Part shown: one piece after another, positions 9,306 to 57,503 of the stretch
How positions within the stretch are numbered: the stretch's first letter is position 1
How the letters are laid out: every line of letters begins with the position of its first letter
From: Podarcis bocagei
Taxonomy: Eukaryota
Length of the DNA: 64,000 nt
Direction: 5' to 3' (one strand)
Assembly (NCBI GenBank): GCA_964188305.1
Contig: OZ076888.1
Notes under the pieces: generated by a model
The model's input: the letters and a program-made list of their open reading frames with translations, nothing else
Databases searched by the model: none
What the model was told of the DNA's origin: nothing
Program-made: the position numbers and the translations under genes

Positions 9306-12285
9306 TCAGGCTGTGCCCTGGCCAAAGGCCTGGTGGAACAGCTCTGTCTTGCAGGCCCTGCGGAAAGATGTCAAGTCCCGCAGGGCCCTGGTCTCTTGTG
9401 ACAGAGTGTTCCACCAGATCGGAGCCACAGCCGAAAAAGCCCTGGCTCTAGTTGAGGCCAGCCTAACTTCTCTGTGGCCTGGGACCTTCAAGATGTTTTT
9501 ATTTGAAGACTGTAAGTTTCTCTGTGGGGCATACCAGGAGAGGCGGTCCCGTAGGTATGAGGGTCCTAGGCCGTATAGGGCTTTAAAGGTTAAAACCAGC
9601 ACCTTAAACCTGATCCTGTACTCCACCGGGAGCCAGTGCAGCTGGTGTAGCACCGGGTGAATGTGATCTCGCAGCGAAGACCTCGTAAGGAGTCTCGCTG
9701 CAGCATTCTGCACCCGCTGGAGTTTCTGGGTCAGTCTCAAGGCCAGCCCCACGTAGAGCGAGTTACAATAATCCAGTCTGGAGGTGACCGTCGCGTGGAT
9801 CACAGTGGCTAGGTCCGGGCGAGAGAGGTCAGGAGCCAACTGCTTAGCTTGGTGGAGATGGAAAAATGCCGCCTTTGTTATAGCTGCAATCTGCGCCTCC
9901 ATGGAAAGGGAGGTGTCGAAGATTACACCCAAACTCTTAACGGACGGTGCTGGCACTAATTGCGCCCCAGCAAGAGATGGGAGTTGCCCCCCCAATCCCA
10001 TATCGCCCCGTCCCAGCCACAGGACCTCTGTCTTCGAAGGATTTAGCTTCAACCGGCTCCCACGTAACCATCCAGCCACAGCTTCCAAACATCTGGTCAG
10101 TGTGTCTGGGGCCGAGTCAGGATGGCCATCCATCAACAGATAGAGTTGGGTGTCATCGGCATGCTGATGGCAACCCAGCCCAAAACTCCGAACAAGCTGG
10201 GCGAGGGGGCGCATAAAGATGTTGAAAAGCATCGGGGAGAGTATCGCACCCTGAGGTACTCCACACACCAAGGAGTGGCGCGATGACAATTCCCCCCCAA
10301 GCGCTCTGTCCCCGACCAGAGAGAAACGAGCGCAGCCATTGAAGGACTGTGCCCTGGATCCCCACATCGGCAAGGCGGTGGTCCAGAAGTTCGTGATCGA
10401 CCATGTCGAAAGCTGCTGACAGATCTAGAAGAATCAGCAGCCCCGACCCGCCTCGATCCAGCTGTCTACAAAGATCATCCGTTAGGGCGACCAGAGCCGT
10501 CTCAGTCCCATGACCAGCGTGGAAGCCGGACTGGAATGGATCCAGAGCCGATGTTTCATCCAGAAACCCACCAAGCTGTTCAGCAACCGCTCTCTCAATC
10601 ACCTTACCCAGGAACGGAAGATTCGAAACCAGGCGGTAATTGGATAGATCTAAAGGATCTAATGATGTTTTCTTTAAGAGCGGGCGCACCACTGCCTCCT
10701 TCAGTTCCCCTGGGAATGTCCCCGTGCCAAGGGACAAATTGATGATATCCCCCAGGAGGGCCCGCACCTCGTCTGGACACGCTCTAATCAGCCAAGACGG
10801 GCACGGGTCGAGAGGACAGGTGGTGGGCTTTCCAGCTCGGAGGAGTCTGTCCACATCGGCTGGGGATATCCGGTCGAAGTGGTCCAATACTGGACCCGAG
10901 GACAGTCGAGGGGCCTCCAGTTCCTTTATTGTATCCAAATTGGCAGGGAGGTCATGGCGGAGCAACAAGACCTTCTCCGCAAAAAAGCTCACAAATGCCT
11001 CACAGCTAAGTGTCAAATTGTTATTTAAATTTGTCTGTCCCTCAAGGGACGTTAAAGACCTGATTATACTAAATAATTGCGCTGGGCGAGAGCTAGCGGA
11101 TGCAATGGAGGCCGAGAAGTATGACTTCTTAGCAGCCTTCACCGCCATCTCGTAGGTTTTCATAAAAGCCCTATAAGATGTTCTTGAGGCTCCGTCACGG
11201 GCACCCCGCCATACTCGCTCTAGCCGTCTGAGGTCCCGCTTCATTTTCCGGAGCTCCTCGGTAAACCAGGGAGCCCGGTTTCTGCGGGGTCGCAGAGGGC
11301 GCTTAGGTGCGATCTCATCGATGGCTGCCAGGAGCTGGGTATTCCAGCCCTCAACAAGCTCAGTCAATGAGTCGCCAGGGGGAGTAAGGTGCCGCAAGGC
11401 TTGGCGGAATCTATCAGGGTCCATCAGCCTTTGCGGGCGAGCCCAAATTGGCTTGCCACCTAAGCAGGGTGGGGGTGGAAAGTCAATCCTGGCTTTCAGA
11501 GCGTAGTGATCAGACCATGGCACCTTCATTGAAGGAGACAGGATCACATCTATACCTACGCCAAAGATCAAATCCAGCGTGTGGCCTGCTTGATGTGTGG
11601 GGCCCGAAACAAACTGGGAGAGCCCTAGTGTCGCCATGGAAGACACCAGGTCCAGAGCCTGTGAGGATGGAGTGGCATCAGCATGGATGTTAAAGTCCCC
11701 CAATACCAATAGGTTAGGGAACTCCAAGGCCCAGCTGGCCACCACCTCCAATAGGCCTGACAGGGTGGCTGCTGGTGCGCTAGGTGGCCAGTACACCAGC
11801 CAGACAGCCAAGCTCTCTTCGGAGCCCCACACTAGGCCAACACATTCAATGCCGGGGATCAATGGCGATGGTAGAGCCCTGAAAGGACAATCTTCCCGGA
11901 TTAATAATGCCACCCCTCCCCCCCGGCCCACAGTCCGCGACTGGTGGAGGACGGAGAAACCCAGGGGCGCCATCTCTCGTAAGGTAACTGTTGCCCCTTC
12001 GCGCACCCAGGTCTCCGTCACACAAGCCAGGTCGACCCCCTGTGAGATAAAGAAGTCTCGCAGGGTGGCGGTTTTATTGCCTATAGACCTGGCATTGCAC
12101 AGCACCAGTGACGGAGGTGAGTAATCCTTGCTCACCCTACCCTCGTCCCTTGGGATGGGGCGCAGATTGGAAGGGGTACGAGCATATCCATATCTCGATC
12201 CCCTTCGCCTATAACATCTGCCCCCACCGCCATACCTCCCTCGCCCCTCTACGGTAGCAATCCCAGGCCTCATGGTAGCCTCCAT
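9306..12285 (-). pseudogene. L2 ORF2 endonuclease-reverse transcriptase (about 990 aa), frameshifted near 10305
   Basis: APE motifs CNARSI, VTETW, GGGVALL, GDFNIH, TLDLIF, SDH. RT motifs NYRLVSNL, FQSGF, LLDLSAAFD, GVPQG, HADD. ORFs 10153-12294 and 9306-10373 join at RGQ/ALGG (frameshift consistent with loss of about 5 nt). First ATG at 12285. Confidence 0.93.
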
Positions 12286-12569
12286 TGATGGCAATTAATG
12301 TTATTCTTTTGCAGCCTAAAACAATAAAACCTTAAAACAATAAAACAAAAACAACCCAGAAAGCAATAAAACAATACAAATAAAAACTGCAAAAATTACA
12401 AACTCATCAAAATCCAACAAATTCCCAAGCCCACCCAAACATCCATCCCACCCCCATATATAAAAATCTAAAGGGAAAGGGTTTTTTTTTTAAAAAAAAA
12501 CATGTTAAAAAGAACTCTGCACCCCTACGGGCCCTCCTGGGCAGCAGCAGCAGCAGCGGCAACAACCAT

Positions 12570-13167
12570 CCTTGTGAGGCCCCACCCTGGGCCAGATAGT
12601 AGGTGGCAGGAGCAGTCCTTGTGAGGCCTGTCAGGCCCTCCCTGGGCCAGGTGGTAAGTGGCAAGAAGGATCAGGGCCCTCAGGCACTCACACAAGGGAG
12701 TCCCCCTGGGCAGCAGGCAGCAAGCAGCAAGCAGTCCTTGTGAGGCTTCAGGCCCCGCCCCAAGCCAGATGGTAAGTGGCAAGAGCAGGGCCCTTGGGCA
12801 CTCACCACAGGAGAGTCTTCCTGGGCAGCAGGCAGCAAGCAGTCCTTGTGAGGCTTCAGGCCCCGCCCCAGGCCAGGTGGTAAGTGGCAGGAAGGAGCAG
12901 GGCCCTCAGGCACTCACTCAGAGGAGTCTTCCTGGGCAGCGGGCAGCAAGCAGCATGCAGTCCTTATGAGGCCTCAGGCCCCGCCCCAGGCCAGATGGTA
13001 AGTGGCAAGAGCAGGGCCCTCAAGCACTCACTCAGGGGAGTCCTCCTGGGCGGCAGGCAGCAAGCAGCACGCAGTCCTTATGAGGCTTCAGGCCCCGCCC
13101 CAGGCCAGATGGTAAGTGGCAAGAGCAGGGCCCTCAAGCACTCACTCAGGGGAGTCCTCCTGGGCAG
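12570..13167 (-). repeat. Tandem 108-119 bp monomers in the L2 5'UTR, most with a GC box
   Basis: Unit starts (gtccttRtgaggc) at 12615, 12734, 12842, 12960 and 13074, plus a degenerate unit near 12570. The last four units contain ggccccgcccc (GGGGCGGGGCC on the element strand). Confidence 0.92.
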
Positions 13168-21685: not shown

Positions 21686-22528
21686 TGTGTGGAAAGGCCC
21701 CATGACCACCCTGTTCCCTAAAATGCAAATAACCAGACAAGACATGGCATATTGGGTTTTGGGATCAATTAAGGCCACAACTTTATTGGTTTGACCATAG
21801 ACATAGAGGTAAGCAACTGTGCATGTCACTCCCACCCGTCCACTGGGAGTGTTTCTAAGGGTGAAGCCGGGGGGCACCATATGACCTATGGCGAATCAGG
21901 GTGTTCCCCCAAGCGGTCCCCACTGGAGGAGTGGTATGGCCCTAGCCCCCATCTGGGTGGACAGAGCCACTCCTCCCAGATCCTTTTAACAGGATAACCT
22001 TTCTCATGGAGGGGCAGGTGGAGGCTACAACCTCCCCTCCAACCAAGACTAGGCTTACCCGATGCCTATCCGCTTTACAAAGTTGTGATGATTGCTATGA
22101 GGTAGGTGAAAACCCGAATGGCAGAGCCAATTTGCCAGATGGGAAAAATTCCTGCCCAACCTCTTAATCCAGCGACTGACATTGTCTGTAGCTAGGATGT
22201 ACCATCCGCAGAAAAAAACCCAAACAAACCCTGAACTAAGGGAAGGTGGGTAGGAGAACCGGTGCAGCGAGCATGAGGCCGAAAGGTGCCGCAGCCCAGA
22301 TATTTAATCTTCCTCTGGAAGATGGGCAGCACACCCAGGGGAATGCTCCCTGAATTCCTGCCGCCATTGGACCAATCAGTGTCAGGAAGACAATCTGGCC
22401 TGCTATAGGCCAATTCACAGGGGAGACCCAGTGCCTGCCCGCAAAGCCTGAGAAGGGCAAATGGACTTAGACAAAATTCAGCGTTGCATCTTGTGTATTG
22501 GAGTGTGGCACCACATACGGAAGGCACA
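21686..22528 (-). mobile_element. Solo ERV-like LTR (ends approximate)
   Basis: On the minus strand: CCAAT boxes near 22365-22378 and poly(A) context CAATAAAGTTGTGGC (AATAAA at 21782-21787). A core of about 110 nt is homologous to the LTR at 23284. Confidence 0.7.
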
Positions 22529-23040
22529 GTGAACCTGTCAATATTTAGATCTTCAGCAACGCATAGTTGATTATTTCCTTTAGCTCAGAAACCCCTCGTT
22601 TTTCTATAAAGCAAAGAATCCCAGCATTCTAAAAGAAGGTGAAGAAACCTATACATTGCACAAGAATCTGACCTGTTGCGCAATGTAGACTTGACTGAAA
22701 GAATAGGCCATGAGAAACAGGAAAAAATAGACCACTGCAAATTTCCTTGAAAGATCCTTTCCCTAACCCTAACTCATATATTCTAGTGCATAATATAGTC
22801 ATACTAGTTTCAATGGTGGTAACATTTTACCACTATAGCACCTGCTTTTATGTCTATACACAAGTTATTCAGAACACTGACAGCTAATTTCAGCTTTGAG
22901 GAAGAAATATTTTTAACTGAGTTTCGCTATTGATCTTACCTTAGCAATTGAACTCAGCTTTTAGTTACAGAAGTATGATCAAACTTGGTTAAAAAACATT
23001 TCTTCATATACCATGGTCTCTCTCTTCCCACCCCTAAAAC

Positions 23041-23179
23041 TTAGAATCACAAAGTTGGAAGGGACCACAAGGGTCATCTAGGGGTCCATCTCCCCTGCAA
23101 TGCAAGAATGTTTTGCTAAATGTGGGGCTCGGACCCACAACCCTGCAATTAAGAGTCTCATTTTCTATCAACTGAGCTA
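23041..23179 (-). mobile_element. tRNA-Lys(CTT)-derived SINE with CR1 3' tail
   Basis: Minus strand tagctcagttgatagaaaatgagactcttaa...gggtccgagccccac, followed by the CR1-type tail tagatgacccttgtggtcccttccaac...attcta. Confidence 0.8.
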
Positions 23180-23283
23180 TGTACATCCTAGCTTCAAGAT
23201 ACAGAACTTCTGTATCTTCAACAGAAACTTTTGTTTATCGAGAAAAGCTAAAATAAATAGTTTCCTCCCTAAAAGAGGGCATG

Positions 23284-24061
23284 TGTTGTGGTGAGATCTG
23301 AAAACTGACCTCTTGGTTGTGGGTGGGTCCATTGGATAGCTACAACACCCGATTGGTAGGTCCCTCGATGCTGGGTTTTAATCTGGCCAATGGGGTTGCA
23401 GTCTAAATGGATCTATATAAACCCATGCACATGACCCAAAGCTCCCTTTTTCGGCTTATGCATCGGAACACCCACCCACCTTTCCCTAATTTTAGGGCCG
23501 TTTGCAATTGACCTTGCTATGCCATCGTGTGTCATCTGTCGTTGGGACAGGGGCAGGGCAGGAATTTTCCCACTTGGCTGATTGGCTGTTGCCATTTGGG
23601 TTTTGCCTGCCATGTAGCAATTCGTCACAACTTGTAAAGTTGTGGATAGGCACTGGTTCATGTGATAGGGATGGAAGAATGGTCTTGCCATCCCTACGTG
23701 AAGGGTATTCCATTAAAGGAATCCAGGGACTCAACTTGGTTTGGCCAACCCCCGGAAAAGGGTTGTGCCCATGCCTGAGTCCAGGGGAGCATCTGGGGAG
23801 TGAATAGAGTCTGCTCCCAGGCTTTTCACCTTCCTCAGGTGTTCACCTTTGGCTGACCTATGATAGAGTTCTGGGTCAGCGCTATCTGCATGGCAGGGAG
23901 CTAGTCGAACCAGAGCCTATGCAACCACACACTTTTCTGTAATCAATAAAGTTGTGGCATAAATTCTGCCAAAAACCAAAACTAAAATTTGAGTCAAATG
24001 TGTCTTTATTTAGGAGGGAGGTCCCTGGGTCTGAACACACAAAATTACACACACAATCACA
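23284..24061 (+). mobile_element. Solo ERV-like LTR
   Basis: TG...CA ends; CCAAT/ATTGG boxes 23330-23391; TATATAAA at 23414; AATAAAGTTGTGGC at 23945. No clean TSD. Confidence 0.75.
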
Positions 24062-27274: not shown

Positions 27275-27858
27275 CTCCAGCAGATAGCAGTGCACGAGCT
27301 GAATCTCCACCTGACAACCTCACATAGGTTCAAGACCGACTTAAGTATGGATTTCTCCTCCTTAACCATAATGCTGCCCTTATAGAATTCAGGAGGGACC
27401 AAGATGTGGACAAAACTAAAATTTGTTGGCTCCTCCCATCATTGGCTTTGACTCTGCTTGTCATTGGTTCTGGCTACACCTTCTGTTGACCTACTAGTTC
27501 CTAACTAAATCCAAAATATAAAGTAAAAAACAGCAACCACCACAATAGCCAAAAAAATCCCATTGGCTAGAAGGACCAATGCTGTGACCTAGTATAAGGT
27601 CCTGTGTTAAAAGTTTAAACTTTATACAAGCTGTTTGTCCAGAGCCAACAAAATGCGGGCAATGTATACACCACTTTAATCTCTCTCTTTTTAAAAGCAC
27701 TGTTGTCTGCCTCAAGACTTGGCCTACTGCATTTCCATTGATTTCATTAACATCTCGCTCAACTTCATTGCTGTTAACTCCAGATGAGATTGACCGACCA
27801 ATATTTATGGCCTCTGTTGAATTCTTTTCACCCAATGTTGTTGACAGGTGTTTCTCTC

Positions 27859-27862
<4 letters not shown>

Positions 27863-27903
<41 letters not shown>
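27863..27903. repeat. (CA)n microsatellite
   Basis: Direct reading. Confidence 0.95.
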
Positions 27904-27905
<2 letters not shown>

Positions 27906-28821
27906 CTCTGGGAAGAATTGATTTGTAATCATTTGAAACAAAGAAACAAACAAATAGATTCACCATGACAGACTGAGTTAATGATAGGCAAGGGATTCAT
28001 TTATCAATCATCAAGCCACTAATCTAAATCTAATGTATCTCAACAGTTGTAATTACATATCATTGAGAAAGCAGTAATTCTAGCCATTGTTGTTTCCTTT
28101 TTTCCTACTATACAATGGAAAGGATGTCTGTGTGTTTAGGTAAGTGAGAAATGGTAGGCATTCATTTTGCCTATGTGAGAAATGGTAGGCATATCAAATT
28201 AAATGATATTAACATGAATGCCTGCAGAACACGAAGAGGACCAAATGGGAAAGTACAAAGATATATTGTAGGCTGTACCAATGGAACAACGAATGGGGAA
28301 CAATATGCAATTAAGTCAATTCAAGAACTGCAAAAACCATGGCAAGGTGAAAATCAACAAGTGTTCTAACTATCAAAGATGCAAGGTGTGAAACCTTTCT
28401 CCCCTGGTGAGTCCCAAGCATCCTCAAAACCCTTGTGTTTCGAGGAGAGATACCTGGTGAGCCCATCACACAAGGTAGGAACTCTTTTTATCATAGGAAA
28501 ACCCTCTGCATAAGGTTTCTGTGTAGTCATATTATTTGGCCCACCAATTTTTGAGGAGCTAACCTCAAAAATTCAGAATAGCCTGCCCTCATGTGTTCCA
28601 ACCCTGTAAGGTAGTACTGTCCACCTGACCTTTTGCTGAACAAATCTGTTCCCTTTGGTTTCCCTCCTGCTGCCACTCTTCCTTGGAATTCCTTTTGTGT
28701 CTCTTTGAAGTTCCCGCTGTTCCCCATATTGAGAGACTGGGCCTGGCAGTGGCGGTGGACTTTGGCGGACCTTGGTGCCTCTGCCCACATTCCTTCTGAC
28801 ATTCCAGCCCAGCCACACTTA

Positions 28822-31827: not shown

Positions 31828-32529
31828 TGTCAGGGATGTGGCTGAATCAAATGCCGGGGAAGAGTCAAACTCTCAAGACGAAGGAATGCCAGTACAGTGG
31901 TACCTCGGGTTACAGACGTTTCAGGTTACAGACTCTGCTAACCCAGAAATAGTACCTCGGGTTAAGAACTTCAGGATGAGAACATAAATCGCCCAGCAGC
32001 AGCAGGAGTCACCATTACCTAAGTGGTTCTTCAGGTTAAGTACAGTTTCAGGTTAAGAACGGACCTCCAAAACAAATTAAGTTCTTAACCAGAGGTACCA
32101 CTGTACAGAGAGAGCCAGAGTCTGACTCTGGAGATGAAAGAATGCAGACAAAACACCAAGAGTTCTCAGACTCGGACAGCTTGCAGGCAAGGGGAGGGGA
32201 AGAGATAGACGGCATTGAGTGGGTTGTTATGCAACCAGGAGAGAAACAGCTTCTTGAGGGCTCTTCTTTTGAGAGCGGGGGGGGGGGATTTCCACCCACC
32301 TTCTCCCCAAACCAGAAGAGCTGAAAGGGTTAAAATGCAATGGAAGGACTGGACTTTGGTGCCCTTCGTGCCATGACGGGGGTGGACACTCAGAGTGAGC
32401 AACTCATAGCTAAGGGGCAGCAGTCTTGGAGTCGCTCTCTGTAATTAATTGTAGAATAAACGTACCATAAAACTGCCAGAGACTCGTTAATTCTTATCGG
32501 AGCTTGCTTGCCTGCCTGAGATCATTACA
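31828..32529 (+). mobile_element. Solo LTR (Gypsy-like) with a nested MITE
   Basis: TGTCAGG...ATTACA ends; perfect 5-bp TSD CCGCC (31823-31827 and 32530-32534); AATAAA near 32455. Confidence 0.88.
31895..32103. mobile_element. Tigger/pogo-like Tc1-mariner MITE
   Basis: TIR cagtggtacctc...gaggtaccactg; TA TSD; copies at 52383, 55117 and 57125. Confidence 0.92.
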
Positions 32530-47255: not shown

Positions 47256-47392
47256 TTAGAATGATAGAATCGTAGAGTTGTAAGGACCACAATGGTCATC
47301 TAGTCCAACCCCCTGTGATGCAGGAATCTTTTGCTCAACATGGGGCTCAAACCCACAACCCTGAGATGCCTCATGCTCTACCAACTGAGTTA
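47256..47392 (-). mobile_element. tRNA-Lys-derived SINE with CR1 tail
   Basis: Second copy of the 23041-23179 family. Confidence 0.78.
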
Positions 47393-47761
47393 TTATCCAA
47401 AGTCAATTGGTATTAGTGTTCTTCCTGTGCAAGCATTTCTCAACCCATAAAGAAGTTGTTGTGGGGTTGTTTGTTGTTGCTATTGTTCTTCAGAATCACC
47501 TTGACAAACATTTAATATGGGTTGGCATCCCTAGGAGGCTTTTGATTCTACTTCCTGCAACACAGGGGGGGGGGAGGAGGGAGGGAGGGGGGAGGGAGGG
47601 AGGGGTGGCTTGGAACTGCAAAGCCCCAGAACTCTGAAACTCTAATAATAGGCTCCAAATACTTTATTCTCTAAGACAGTCTAGCAGCTTTTGAGAGAAA
47701 GGGACTGCTGCTCTGCTCACTGTGGCAGTTCGCTGCTAGCACTGCTAATATCCAAAGAGTA

Positions 47762-52053: not shown

Positions 52054-52222
52054 GTCATAGAACTGCAGAGCTGGAAGGGACCGCAAGGGTCATCTAGTCC
52101 AAGTTCCTGCAATGCAGGAGTCTCAGCTAAAGCAGATGGCCATCCAACCTCTGCTTTAAAACCTCCAAGGATGGAGAGTCCACCACCTTCCAAGGGAGAC
52201 TGCTCCACTGTCAAACAGCTCT
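52054..52222 (-). mobile_element. CR1 LINE 3' end
   Basis: Minus strand cccttggaagg...ggaggttttaaagcagaggttggatggccatctg...ggactagatgacccttgcggtcccttccagctc. Confidence 0.85.
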
Positions 52223-52382: not shown

Positions 52383-52606
52383 GTGGTACCTCGGGTTAAG
52401 AACATAATTCGTTCTGGAGGTCCGTTCTTAACCTGAAACTGTTCTTAACCTGAAGCACCACTTTAGTTAATGGGGCCTCCCGCTGCCGCCGTGTCGCCGG
52501 AGCACGAATTCTGTTCTCATCCTGAAGCAAAGTTCTTAACCCGAGGTACTATTTCTGGGTTAGCGGAGTCTGTAACCTGAAGCGTCTGTAACCCAAGGTA
52601 CCACTG
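52383..52606. mobile_element. Tigger/pogo-like MITE
   Basis: gtggtacctcgggtt...ggtaccactg followed by TA. Confidence 0.9.
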
Positions 52607-53350
52607 TACATGGACATAGCTAGATGATAGATAGATAGATAGAGGATAGATGATCAATAGATAGCAACCCAGCTAGAATAGTGGTCCCCCGTAAAACCAC
52701 ATTAAAAAAATCACTGGAATACCTAAATGCTTCTGACATGAATGCAAATGCACTCTGAATTATGCATGGTGATGCATCGCAATTGTGGATTTACCCAAAA
52801 TGCATTGGTGCATCCTTCTATTTGTGCATGACCTTTTGGTGGTCAGGGTGGTCATATATATTCTGTCAGGGATAAAAGAAATAGGTATTGCATGCATACT
52901 AATCCAGGGAAATCAGGAAACAGGAACCACTGCCAAGGGGAATGCAGCGAACGTACGTAGACAGTACCTTAATGATGAATGAAGTCCCAAGGATTGAAAA
53001 GGGAGCAGGGGACCAAAGGAGAGTCATACCAGGTAATAAGGTGACTTTCACCCAGCATGTAGAACAGAAACAGAATTTTCTATACCAAGTACCAAAATAA
53101 ACCTGTAAGAATGTTTGAGACCATAGATGTGCAGAAGACATCCACCCACACTCTTTTAGAAGTTACCAGAAAATCCACAGTTTCATTAAAAAAAAAAAAT
53201 CTTTGCTTGACTGCAGCACTTAAATCTAGTTGTAACAAAGCAGTCCTTCGGAGATCTGGAGCAAATGTCTGAGTGCTACATATTATCACACACACAACAC
53301 TCTTTTTCCACTTTAATAGTCATGGCTTCCCCCAAAGATTCCCGTGAACC

Positions 53351-53848: not shown

Positions 53849-55116
53849 ATAGTTTGTAAAGGGTGCTGAGACTTGTTAGAGCATGAATAAACTACAGCTC
53901 CCACAATTCTTTGAGGGAAGCCATGACTGTTAAAGGGGTACAAGCGTGCTTTCTATGTATGCTGTGGATTTCCTTCCTAACCCTTGTTCCATTCAAACCT
54001 GTCTTTAAACATTCATTAACAACCAGTGCTCTACAACTCTGAAGTCTTAAGGGTAAAGTAAAGAGCAATATCTTTATATAAAGGAAAAGAACAATTGCAG
54101 CTAGGTGTTCACTGGAGATGAGCCAAACCTTAATTAGCTGTAACAGATTGAAAGAACCGTGACAAATTTGAAACAGTGGCTTACTTCTGCTAACTCAAAT
54201 TACTTCTTGACCTGAGGACGTTAACTTAAGCTGAGCTCTCCTAGGTGTCATAATGACAATTTAATATATATTTGTGCCATCAGACAAAGACTGATTAGAA
54301 GGGAGAACTGCTCTGATAGCACCCTTAGAGGACCAGGTAGAATAGCTTAATGTGGCTTATTAAAAAAGGGAAGACTACTGATATTATCCTTAAATAGGGG
54401 GAACAAAGAACACCCAGCAGGAAGCTAGACGCAGGTTCCAAGAACAGGAAAAAAGAAAGAAAGAGGAAACTCAGCAAGAGCAATGTGTTAGTAATTGAAA
54501 ATTTCCCTCTCTGGAAAAGAACGTCACACTGAGATCTAAATGACATAACCTCAAGGATACATTGAACTCTCAATTAGCATACTTTCTCTGACCCCCATTC
54601 ACTTTTTTAAAAAAGAGTAAAATAAAATATATTCACTGCCATCCAAAAGTGCCAGGGACATGGACAATCAATGCAGCCAAGCCTTCATTTCAGCCTAGGT
54701 CTCAAGCCTTAGGTTCACCTTAGGTTTAATTTGTTTCATTAAGCATTTATGCATCATTCATAAAAGTGTTAAGTCCTTTACAATCTGTATTTCATTCTTC
54801 CCAACTAAAAATTTGCATGATAGGTGGTGATGGTGGTGGTTAGGATCCGGACAATCAGTATCTTATCCAACCCCACCCACTGGGTTGACGGGTTAACTGA
54901 TATTTGAACCCAGGACTCCTGGGTTTGATATCTTGTGCCCCAGACAGGGCAGGGAAGTGCAGAAAACTTTCTTTCCATCAATTTTCTTAACTTAGGATCC
55001 AAGACACATTCCCAGTATTCCCAAAACAGTCATTGAAGAGGAATAAAAATGATAGTAATGGAATGTTCTTGCCCATGCATATCAGTGGGACTCCAAATAC
55101 AAATAACTTTATTGTA

Positions 55117-55358
55117 CAGTGGTACCTTGGGTTAAGAACTTAATTCGTTCTGGAGGTTCGTTCTTAACCTGAAACTGTTCTTAACCTGAGGTACCACTTT
55201 AACTAATGGGGCCTCCCGCTGCTGCCGCGCTGCCTCCACACAATTTCTGTTTTCATCCTGAAGCAAAGTTCTTAACCCGAGGAACTATTTCTGGGTTAGC
55301 AGAGTCTGTAATCTGAAGTGTCTATAACCTGAAGCGTCTGTAACCCGAGTTACCACTG
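55117..55358. mobile_element. Tigger/pogo-like MITE
   Basis: TA cagtggtacc...taccactg TA. Confidence 0.92.
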
Positions 55359-56860: not shown

Positions 56861-57503
56861 AGACCCTCCAAGTCTCTCTGTTCTCTAGGAACATTCCCAG
56901 ATTTATGGAAGCCATCGCAGTTTCTGATTTGATGCTGGAATGTCCTGCTTTTCCTTAGGACGTACCTATTTTCATTGGAGAAATGTTGGAGGGTGTGGAG
57001 TTATGCAACCCTCGAGCCAAGGAGATAAATAACTATACAACCTTTAGAAGACATCTGAAGGCAGCCCTGTATAGAGATGGGGTTGTTTTTTTTAATGTTT
57101 AATGTTTTATTATGTTTTTATATTCAGTGGTACCTCGGGTTACAGATGCTTCAGGTTACAGACTCTGCTAACCCAGAAATAGTACCTTAGGTTAAGAACT
57201 TTGCTTCAGGATGAGAACATAAATCGTGCGGCACTGGCGTGGCGGCAGTGGGAGGCCCCTTTAGCTAAAGTGGTACCTCAGGTTAAGAACAGTTTCGGGT
57301 TTAGAACGGACCTCCAGAATGAATTAAGTTCTTAACCCGAGGTACCACTGTATACTGGAAGTTGCTCAGAACTGCTGGGACAACCCAGTCAGATGGGTTG
57401 TATGTATGTATGTATGTATGTATGTATGTATGTATGTGTACAGTAAGGAAGTAAGTAAGTAAGTAATAAAAAGTAAATAGGATGTCCCTATTTTCAGTGG
57501 TAT
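56861..57503 (+). mobile_element. Composite repeat (head, L2 3' end, repeated head motif), copy 1
   Basis: agaccctccaag...ggagaaatgttggagggt head; L2 tail 57020-57398; aggatgtccctattttca motif recurs at 57479. Confidence 0.7.
57125..57350. mobile_element. Tigger/pogo-like MITE nested in an L2 tail
   Basis: cagtggtacctcgggtt...gaggtaccactg followed by TA. Confidence 0.92.

Follow-up and report, generated by a model that had tools for sequence, protein, structure and literature searches.

What does a hairpin with a U-rich internal loop do when two diverged copies of a lizard LTR-like element both keep it upstream of the poly(A) signal? The question arises in Podarcis bocagei (contig OZ076888.1), where two such elements, here termed P and M, lie back to back with about 700-770 bp between them in the 64,000-nt stretch of DNA that was analysed (the window; Table 1). 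The initial annotation took the hairpin for an ENE, an RNA element that captures poly(A) in a triple helix. Judged from the sequence, the reading of the hairpin as a single-domain, ENE-like clamp for poly(A), set in a structured R region some 520 nt long, has, in our estimation, a slightly better than even chance of being correct.

P and M are homologous well beyond the hairpin. With nhmmer, P 23458-24051 aligns with M 22267-21676 over about 600 nt (E 3.5e-26); thus, the two LTRs, described in the annotation as otherwise poorly similar, are not independent but one element seen twice. In a global alignment, identity is 57/160 upstream, 45/101 in the first part of R, 40/56 in the hairpin, 25/41 just 3' of it, 109/275 in the middle, 26/33 in the poly(A) block, and 34/70 in U5, the poly(A) block being as conserved as the hairpin. 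LTR features (TG...CA ends, promoter boxes, AATAAA, and a T/G-rich downstream tract) are clear in P, and the same set is found in M with a weaker TATA and an uncertain 5' end. A GU-rich tract follows AATAAA in both copies, and this layout of CCAAT, TATA, AATAAA, and GU-rich tract is LTR anatomy as given in PMC2664473. Transcription of P would start near 23445, and cleavage would occur near 23958-23971 in P and near 21760 in M. This anatomy, from TATA to poly(A) site, would imply an R region of about 520 nt, longer than that of HTLV-1 (228 nt) or foamy virus (193 nt). A downstream promoter, using the loop of the second domain hairpin as TATA, was considered less likely, as the upstream CCAAT/TATA spacing is typical and the homology between the copies begins just after it.

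These sequence features are best explained if P and M are LTR-like copies that diverged within a single lineage of lacertid retroelements; on anatomy, the class could be either ERV or Gypsy/other. A LINE protein in the window marks the host as a lacertid-like lizard. No convincing target-site duplication was found at the ends of P or M, no primer-binding site was seen after either end, and 41 nearby reading frames (40 of the 53 listed, together with one at 27497) gave 0 Pfam hits. Short purine runs lie upstream of both copies, the one just upstream of P being 9 nt long. Searches with blastn and nhmmer detected no further copies of the family in the 64-kb window; the genome probably holds thousands. 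By eye, a 13-nt stretch at 22190-22202 matches 23181-23193 in inverted orientation.

Table 1. Positions of the features of P and M within the window.
Feature	Position	Strand	Details	Basis
P, LTR-like element	23282..24039	+	about 758 bp; ends inferred	6-bp terminal inverted repeat, TG..CA; M homology stops nearby
P promoter boxes	23331..23421	+	CCAAT boxes 23331, 23352 (both reverse), 23387; TATA 23414	motif positions; function inferred
P U-rich internal-loop hairpin	23557..23611	+	U4 23565-68, U4 23601-04	folding, descriptor scan
P block	23625..23633	+	complementary to 23949-23957 (AATAAA end and following bases)	folding
P multibranch domain	23646..23920	+	closing helix 23646-59 with 23907-20	folding, z -7.3
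P domain hairpins	23666-96, 23707-22, 23727-82, 23783-849, 23852-80, 23881-901	+		folding
P poly(A) signal	23945..23950	+	AATAAA	sequence
P GU-rich tract	~23992-24011	+		sequence
M, LTR-like element	21688..22517	-	5' end uncertain, 22517 to ~22590	homology to P; ends inspected
M promoter boxes	22300..22414	-	CCAAT boxes 22414, 22376 (both reverse), 22370; weak TATA-like run 22307	motif positions; function inferred
M U-rich internal-loop hairpin	22101..22156	-	U5 22148-44, U4 22112-09; two A·C stem mismatches	folding, descriptor scan
M block	22077..22088	-	pairs with 21786-21775, 12 bp, most of AATAAA	pair probability 0.95
M multibranch domain	21797..22069	-	closing helix 22069-53 with 21814-797	folding, z -3.1
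M domain hairpins	22041-07, 21995-80, 21976-25, 21921-859, 21851-27	-		folding
M poly(A) signal	21782..21787	-	AATAAA	sequence

Both hairpins lie where the annotation had placed them (23557-23611 on the plus strand and 22156-22101 on the minus strand), downstream of the promoter boxes and 333 nt (P) and 313 nt (M) before AATAAA, in keeping with the 315-335 nt that it had estimated. The fold that it had assigned to both copies holds for P, which forms a lower stem of 6 bp, an internal loop with AA and U4 facing U4 and G, and two upper stems of 4 bp each (-23.9 kcal/mol, z -3.3, equalled by 1 of 200 shuffles). Within the putative R region, the checked stem pairs of P have probabilities of 0.95-1.0, and its eight loop uridines are unpaired with probabilities of 0.81-1.0. 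The fold does not hold equally for M, in which A·C mismatches occupy 2 of the 14 stem pairs and the sense hairpin is at chance level (z -0.7; 47 of 200 shuffles as good), compared with z -4.7 for the antisense. In the context of R, the checked lower-stem pairs of M have probabilities of at most 0.01, although forcing the fold costs no more than 1.5 kcal/mol. The P hairpin looks intact and the M hairpin impaired.

Stem covariation had been suggested as a check on the hairpin. Between these two copies of common descent, 12 of the 14 pairs are identical, none shows a compensatory change, and two are broken in M; both stem changes disrupt pairs in the sense orientation, where the antisense would have G·U, a record that counts against an ENE. 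The U tracts, expected to be invariant, are indeed kept in both copies together with the AA, the sole difference being the U4/U5 length. Moreover, 26 of 28 hairpin stem nucleotides are identical, as opposed to 50 of 88 in the stems of the multibranch domain described below (Fisher p 4e-4). An identity so far above that of the domain stems implies that the sequence is constrained along with the shape, which is what a tertiary motif would call for. A stem/U4-6/stem descriptor matched P and M only across 64 kb and both strands: its strict and middle settings found P alone, with 0 matches in 60 block shuffles, and its loose setting found P and M, with a mean of 0.033 matches per shuffled window. 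The descriptor was drawn up after the motif had been seen, and its two matches are homologous and hence count as one event.

Single-domain ENEs have U tracts that face each other between stems rich in G-C, with a poly(A) site downstream (PMC7583470 and PMC8704770). The architecture claimed for the lizard hairpin fits this pattern in that two stems enclose an opposed U loop, in sense and upstream of AATAAA, with G-C pairs abutting the U tracts on the upper side of the loop; it departs from it on the lower side, where AA (5') and G or CA (3') come between the U tracts and the G-C pairs. By analogy, this lower side would argue against an ENE, given that adjacent G-C pairs are described as essential in the Arabidopsis Evade ENE (PMC12501189). 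Interrupted A-minor stems are known for lower dENE domains (PMC7583470). The U tracts had been judged short and at the lower limit for an ENE, and U4 is indeed short; yet four consecutive triples are reported to be sufficient for a triple helix (PMC7583470), so U4 would be workable, and the opposed uridines (U4/U4 in P, U5/U4 in M) allow at least four consecutive triples.

The lizard hairpin, a candidate ENE with most of the sequence features of the family, resembles known ENEs in some respects and differs in others. The ENE of KSHV PAN likewise has uridines on both strands of its internal loop, G-C-rich stems, and a poly(A) site downstream (PMC7583470; PMC8704770), and its five triples compare with the four possible in the lizard hairpin. 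Unlike it, the lizard hairpin has AA and G/CA before the lower stem and 313-333 nt of folded RNA before AATAAA, and is predicted only. ENEs have already been reported in LTR retroelements, some inside the LTR (PMC13541005), and section 3.4 of PMC7583470 names stickleback retroviruses among the bearers. As in these transposable elements, which include plant and fungal LTR elements and Arabidopsis Evade, the lizard hairpin occupies a retroelement 3' region, in some cases within the LTR (PMC12501189); it differs in its squamate host and in the long covarying multibranch R around it, and most of the plant elements have two U-rich loops where the lizard hairpin has one. A double-domain ENE was rejected, as there is one U loop per hairpin and merely a 2x2 pyrimidine loop above it. 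The blunt-ended ENEs of MALAT1 and MEN-beta provide another U-rich internal loop in a vertebrate; the lizard U tracts, however, are free of C/G interruption and are followed by AATAAA rather than a genomic A-rich tract. No tRNA-like element was found, and a MALAT1-type ENE was rejected on these grounds.

The apical loop of the hairpin keeps a CCAAT-box-like 7-mer in both copies. An ENE does not need such a loop, which counts against this reading and raises the alternative that the conserved 55 bp are a DNA element, namely a CCAAT box flanked by inverted NF-kB/NFAT-like half sites, with the hairpin as a by-product. The P loop matches the NF-Y consensus, the arms resemble kB/NFAT sites, and the lack of covariation in the hairpin is in line with a DNA element. 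In addition, M carries the hairpin's opening 10 nt a second time at 22362-22353 (minus strand), in its promoter region beside the CCAAT boxes. Control windows, nevertheless, also contain such repeats: 6.9% of 305 reach the 10-nt repeat in M, and 24% of 307 reach the 8-nt repeat in P. Furthermore, some 145 nt separate the site from the TATA box upstream of it (the TATA of P or TATA-like run of M being 144-151 nt upstream of the hairpin), and three nested stems are kept beside a domain constrained as RNA. A purely DNA-level role is considered very improbable.

That adjoining domain emerged when P and M were folded separately. Each gives a matching structure of about 275 nt, in which a long-range helix closes around six hairpins in P and five in M, arranged in the same order. 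The closing helix has pair probabilities of 0.9-0.99 in P and 0.8-0.93 in M; its energies within the copies are -20.9 and -19.4 kcal/mol, values that 5 and 7 of the 8528 control windows reach, a set that includes the true sites. Across copies, the strands reach only -12.5 and -13.5 kcal/mol, matched by 1011 and 577 control windows. The stability of the domains (z -7.3 for P, -3.1 for M) was equalled by 0 of 60 shuffles, and the tree edit distance between the P and M folds is 116, compared with a shuffle minimum of 142 (2 x 60 shuffles); the placement of the domain boundaries at the closing helix makes both the z and the tree tests favour real folds.

All 44 compared interior pairs are still paired in both copies, with 38 of the 88 positions changed and with two-sided changes in 18 of the pairs. 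A random-substitution null kept 24.6 pairs on average and 35 at most, and reached 44 in 0 of 20,000 trials, which rejects neutral change for the domain; both folds were known when the helix registers were picked, and the paired counts are inflated accordingly. Three of the helices have an anchor in the form of a block, bulge, or loop common to both copies, and in these 23 of 23 pairs are kept, 11 of them two-sided (null 0/20,000). The count leaves out the fourth hairpin, which has no anchor, as well as the sixth P hairpin, a single mismatched column in the closing helix, the helix at the poly(A) signal, which is invariant, and a short helix near the cleavage site, in which three of five pairs are shared, one is found in P only, and one in M only. 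The cross-copy closing-helix test points the same way as the pair count. The domain is thus very probably a real, selected RNA structure within a long LTR R region, on the strength of the two sequences compared. The covariation looked for in the hairpin occurs instead in this neighbouring domain, which the annotation had missed. In the second domain hairpin, a 6-nt loop (23712-23717, plus strand; 21990-21985, minus strand) is nearly identical between the copies on a stem with 2 of 5 pairs compensatory, and is a possible protein site.

The domain may indeed have a protein-binding role of its own, and the whole region could be read in this way, as a protein-binding RNA for export or regulation of the HERV-K RcRE or HTLV-1 RxRE type, in which the U loop would be one protein site and no poly(A) triplex would form. 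Similar to those elements, the lizard domain is a large multibranch LTR RNA fold at the transcript 3' end, with long-range stems across a long R (PMC3185809; PMC3694450; PMC2664473): RcRE sits in U3R (PMC3185809), and RxRE, found where the transcripts end on the 3' side, bridges a long R (PMC3694450). The conserved loops, both the apical 7-mer and the 6-nt loop of the second hairpin, would also suit such a role, which the domain may well have alongside an ENE in the hairpin. The likeness, however, is one of position and fold, and neither a cognate protein gene nor an internal region was found among the 41 nearby reading frames. In HTLV-1, AATAAA lies upstream in U3, whereas the fold of the lizard element has it at its 3' end. 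Opposed U4/U4-5 tracts are not predicted by an export element, and we regard this explanation of the whole region as unlikely.

Whether the folds act in the sense orientation is a further point. The functional strand might be the antisense, with an A-rich internal loop, or the shared fold might be an unselected relic. The strand difference of the M hairpin noted above fits this possibility, and the domain z-scores are nearly alike on both strands (antisense versus sense, -7.0 versus -7.3 in P and -2.9 versus -3.1 in M). By contrast, sense has more G·U pairs than antisense (P, 8 versus 2; M, 10 versus 6; arms defined from the sense folds), one P domain hairpin weakens from -29.6 kcal/mol in sense to -16.8 in antisense, and TATA and AATAAA lie on the sense strand. 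A symmetric test over all gapless helices was noisy, with 10 G·U versus 5 A·C in P and 6 versus 5 in M, against expected ratios of 1.4 (P) and 1.2 (M) and with numbers of helices that shuffles also gave. In favour of sense are the raw energies, the counts of G·U, and the motifs for promoter and poly(A) site; z-scores do not discriminate. A relic is at odds with the rejection of neutral change for the domain, and either form of this alternative is rated extremely improbable.

Structure also reaches the poly(A) signal. A block of 9-12 nt located 3' of the hairpin complements the poly(A)-signal region, a match equalled by 6 and 7 of 8532 control windows; the pairing is identical over 9 pairs in P and M and thus offers no covariation. 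The P block has an alternative local partner at 23637-44, and P folds of 23445-23985 and 23550-23985 prefer local hairpins, while that of 23557-23971 prefers the long-range form. P also contains an 11-nt direct repeat (23635-23645 and 23947-23957, plus strand), of which M has the downstream copy only; according to the fold models, this repeat would let the helices around AATAAA swap partners between two local hairpins and one long rod.

In every fold computed, AAUAAA is partly paired, as would be expected if the structure served only the 5' leader or 3' processing (silencing the poly(A) site that lies in the 5' LTR, packaging, dimerisation, or TAR-like control) and the U loop were incidental. 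When R carries the signal, retroviruses have to keep it silent at the 5' LTR, and RNA structure takes part in poly(A)-site choice in foamy viruses (PMC3694450); a splice-donor-like site (8/11) within the M closing helix, at 22061-22051 (minus strand), recalls the poly(A) control of foamy viruses. That site, however, is without a counterpart at the same place in P, no shared palindromic dimerisation loop was found by inspection, and the invariant U tracts are left unexplained. A role confined to leader or processing functions is judged quite improbable. An H/ACA-like reading was suggested by a hexamer of M that resembles an H box and sits 14 nt below the loop; on inspection it was rejected, as P does not keep the box and M does not keep the ACA.

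If the hairpin is a single-domain ENE, the transcribed part of P and M, the inferred R of about 520 nt, would be under selection as RNA. The poly(A) tail at its 3' end would fold back into the U4/U4-5 loop and form about four U·A-U triples, and this triplex would slow deadenylation of the intronless element RNA. The multibranch domain would take up the roughly 330 nt between hairpin and 3' end, and the downstream fold would partly occlude AAUAAA, by which polyadenylation that comes too early, in the 5' LTR, might be held down. A scaffold that specifically delivers the tail to the loop found no support when tested, as the folded distance from hairpin to 3' end was matched by 6/60 and 14/60 shuffles. 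In a bolder form of the ENE reading, which we find improbable, each LTR, solo copies included, would by itself encode a structured RNA of about 520 nt, intronless, capped, and polyadenylated, with its tail clamped by its own ENE, in the manner of PAN, and the strand swap around AAUAAA would select between short RNA and read-through.

Searches for relatives of the hairpin returned little. Its pattern gave one match in bacterial and archaeal genomes, without flanking similarity and taken as chance, and none in plasmids; protein searches with conceptual translations across the hairpin returned nothing or one unrelated repeat protein, and a motif search of paper full texts returned unrelated papers only. 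Within the window, Rfam 15 covariance models gave 0 matches at gathering score, ribozyme families included, and none of the eight weak matches (E up to 10) covers either hairpin. The annotation had been aware of no description of an ENE in squamate ERV LTRs. No reptile case appears among the literature matches listed, though the tables of the primary ENE surveys may list related vertebrate elements; a vertebrate LTR ENE has a precedent in the stickleback retroviruses cited in PMC7583470. Transposable-element ENEs are reported mostly from plants and fungi. What would be new here, then, is the squamate extension of LTR ENEs with an unusual scaffold. If true, amniote retroelements would join those protected by a poly(A) triplex, and host RNAs ending in such LTRs could be stabilised. 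Whatever the hairpin does, the covarying multibranch RNA of about 275 nt in an unusually long R is well supported and apparently undescribed, none of the literature matches listed describing such an LTR domain.

No host gene was identified in the window. An open frame of 126 codons at 27588-27968 (plus strand) has no Pfam hit and no convincing PDB hit and may be due to chance. Between the two LTR-like elements, 23042-23180 is a tRNA-related SINE-like repeat similar to 47265-47393 and 52058-52119, and 22900-23006 is an imperfect inverted repeat of 107 nt, possibly a small transposon relic, which a miRNA model with a cut-off of 90 bits matches weakly (25.5 bits). A family of repeats some 230 nt long, which have inverted repeats inside them and appear MITE-like, lies at 52383-52611, 55115-55332, 57120-57352, and 31892-32107. 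A young LINE and the tandem repeats of about 110 nt that precede it occupy 9306-12294 (minus strand) and 12581-13145; the LINE has endonuclease and reverse transcriptase in two frames, and the best match of its reverse transcriptase (9306-10424) is a Podarcis muralis entry with 92% identity.
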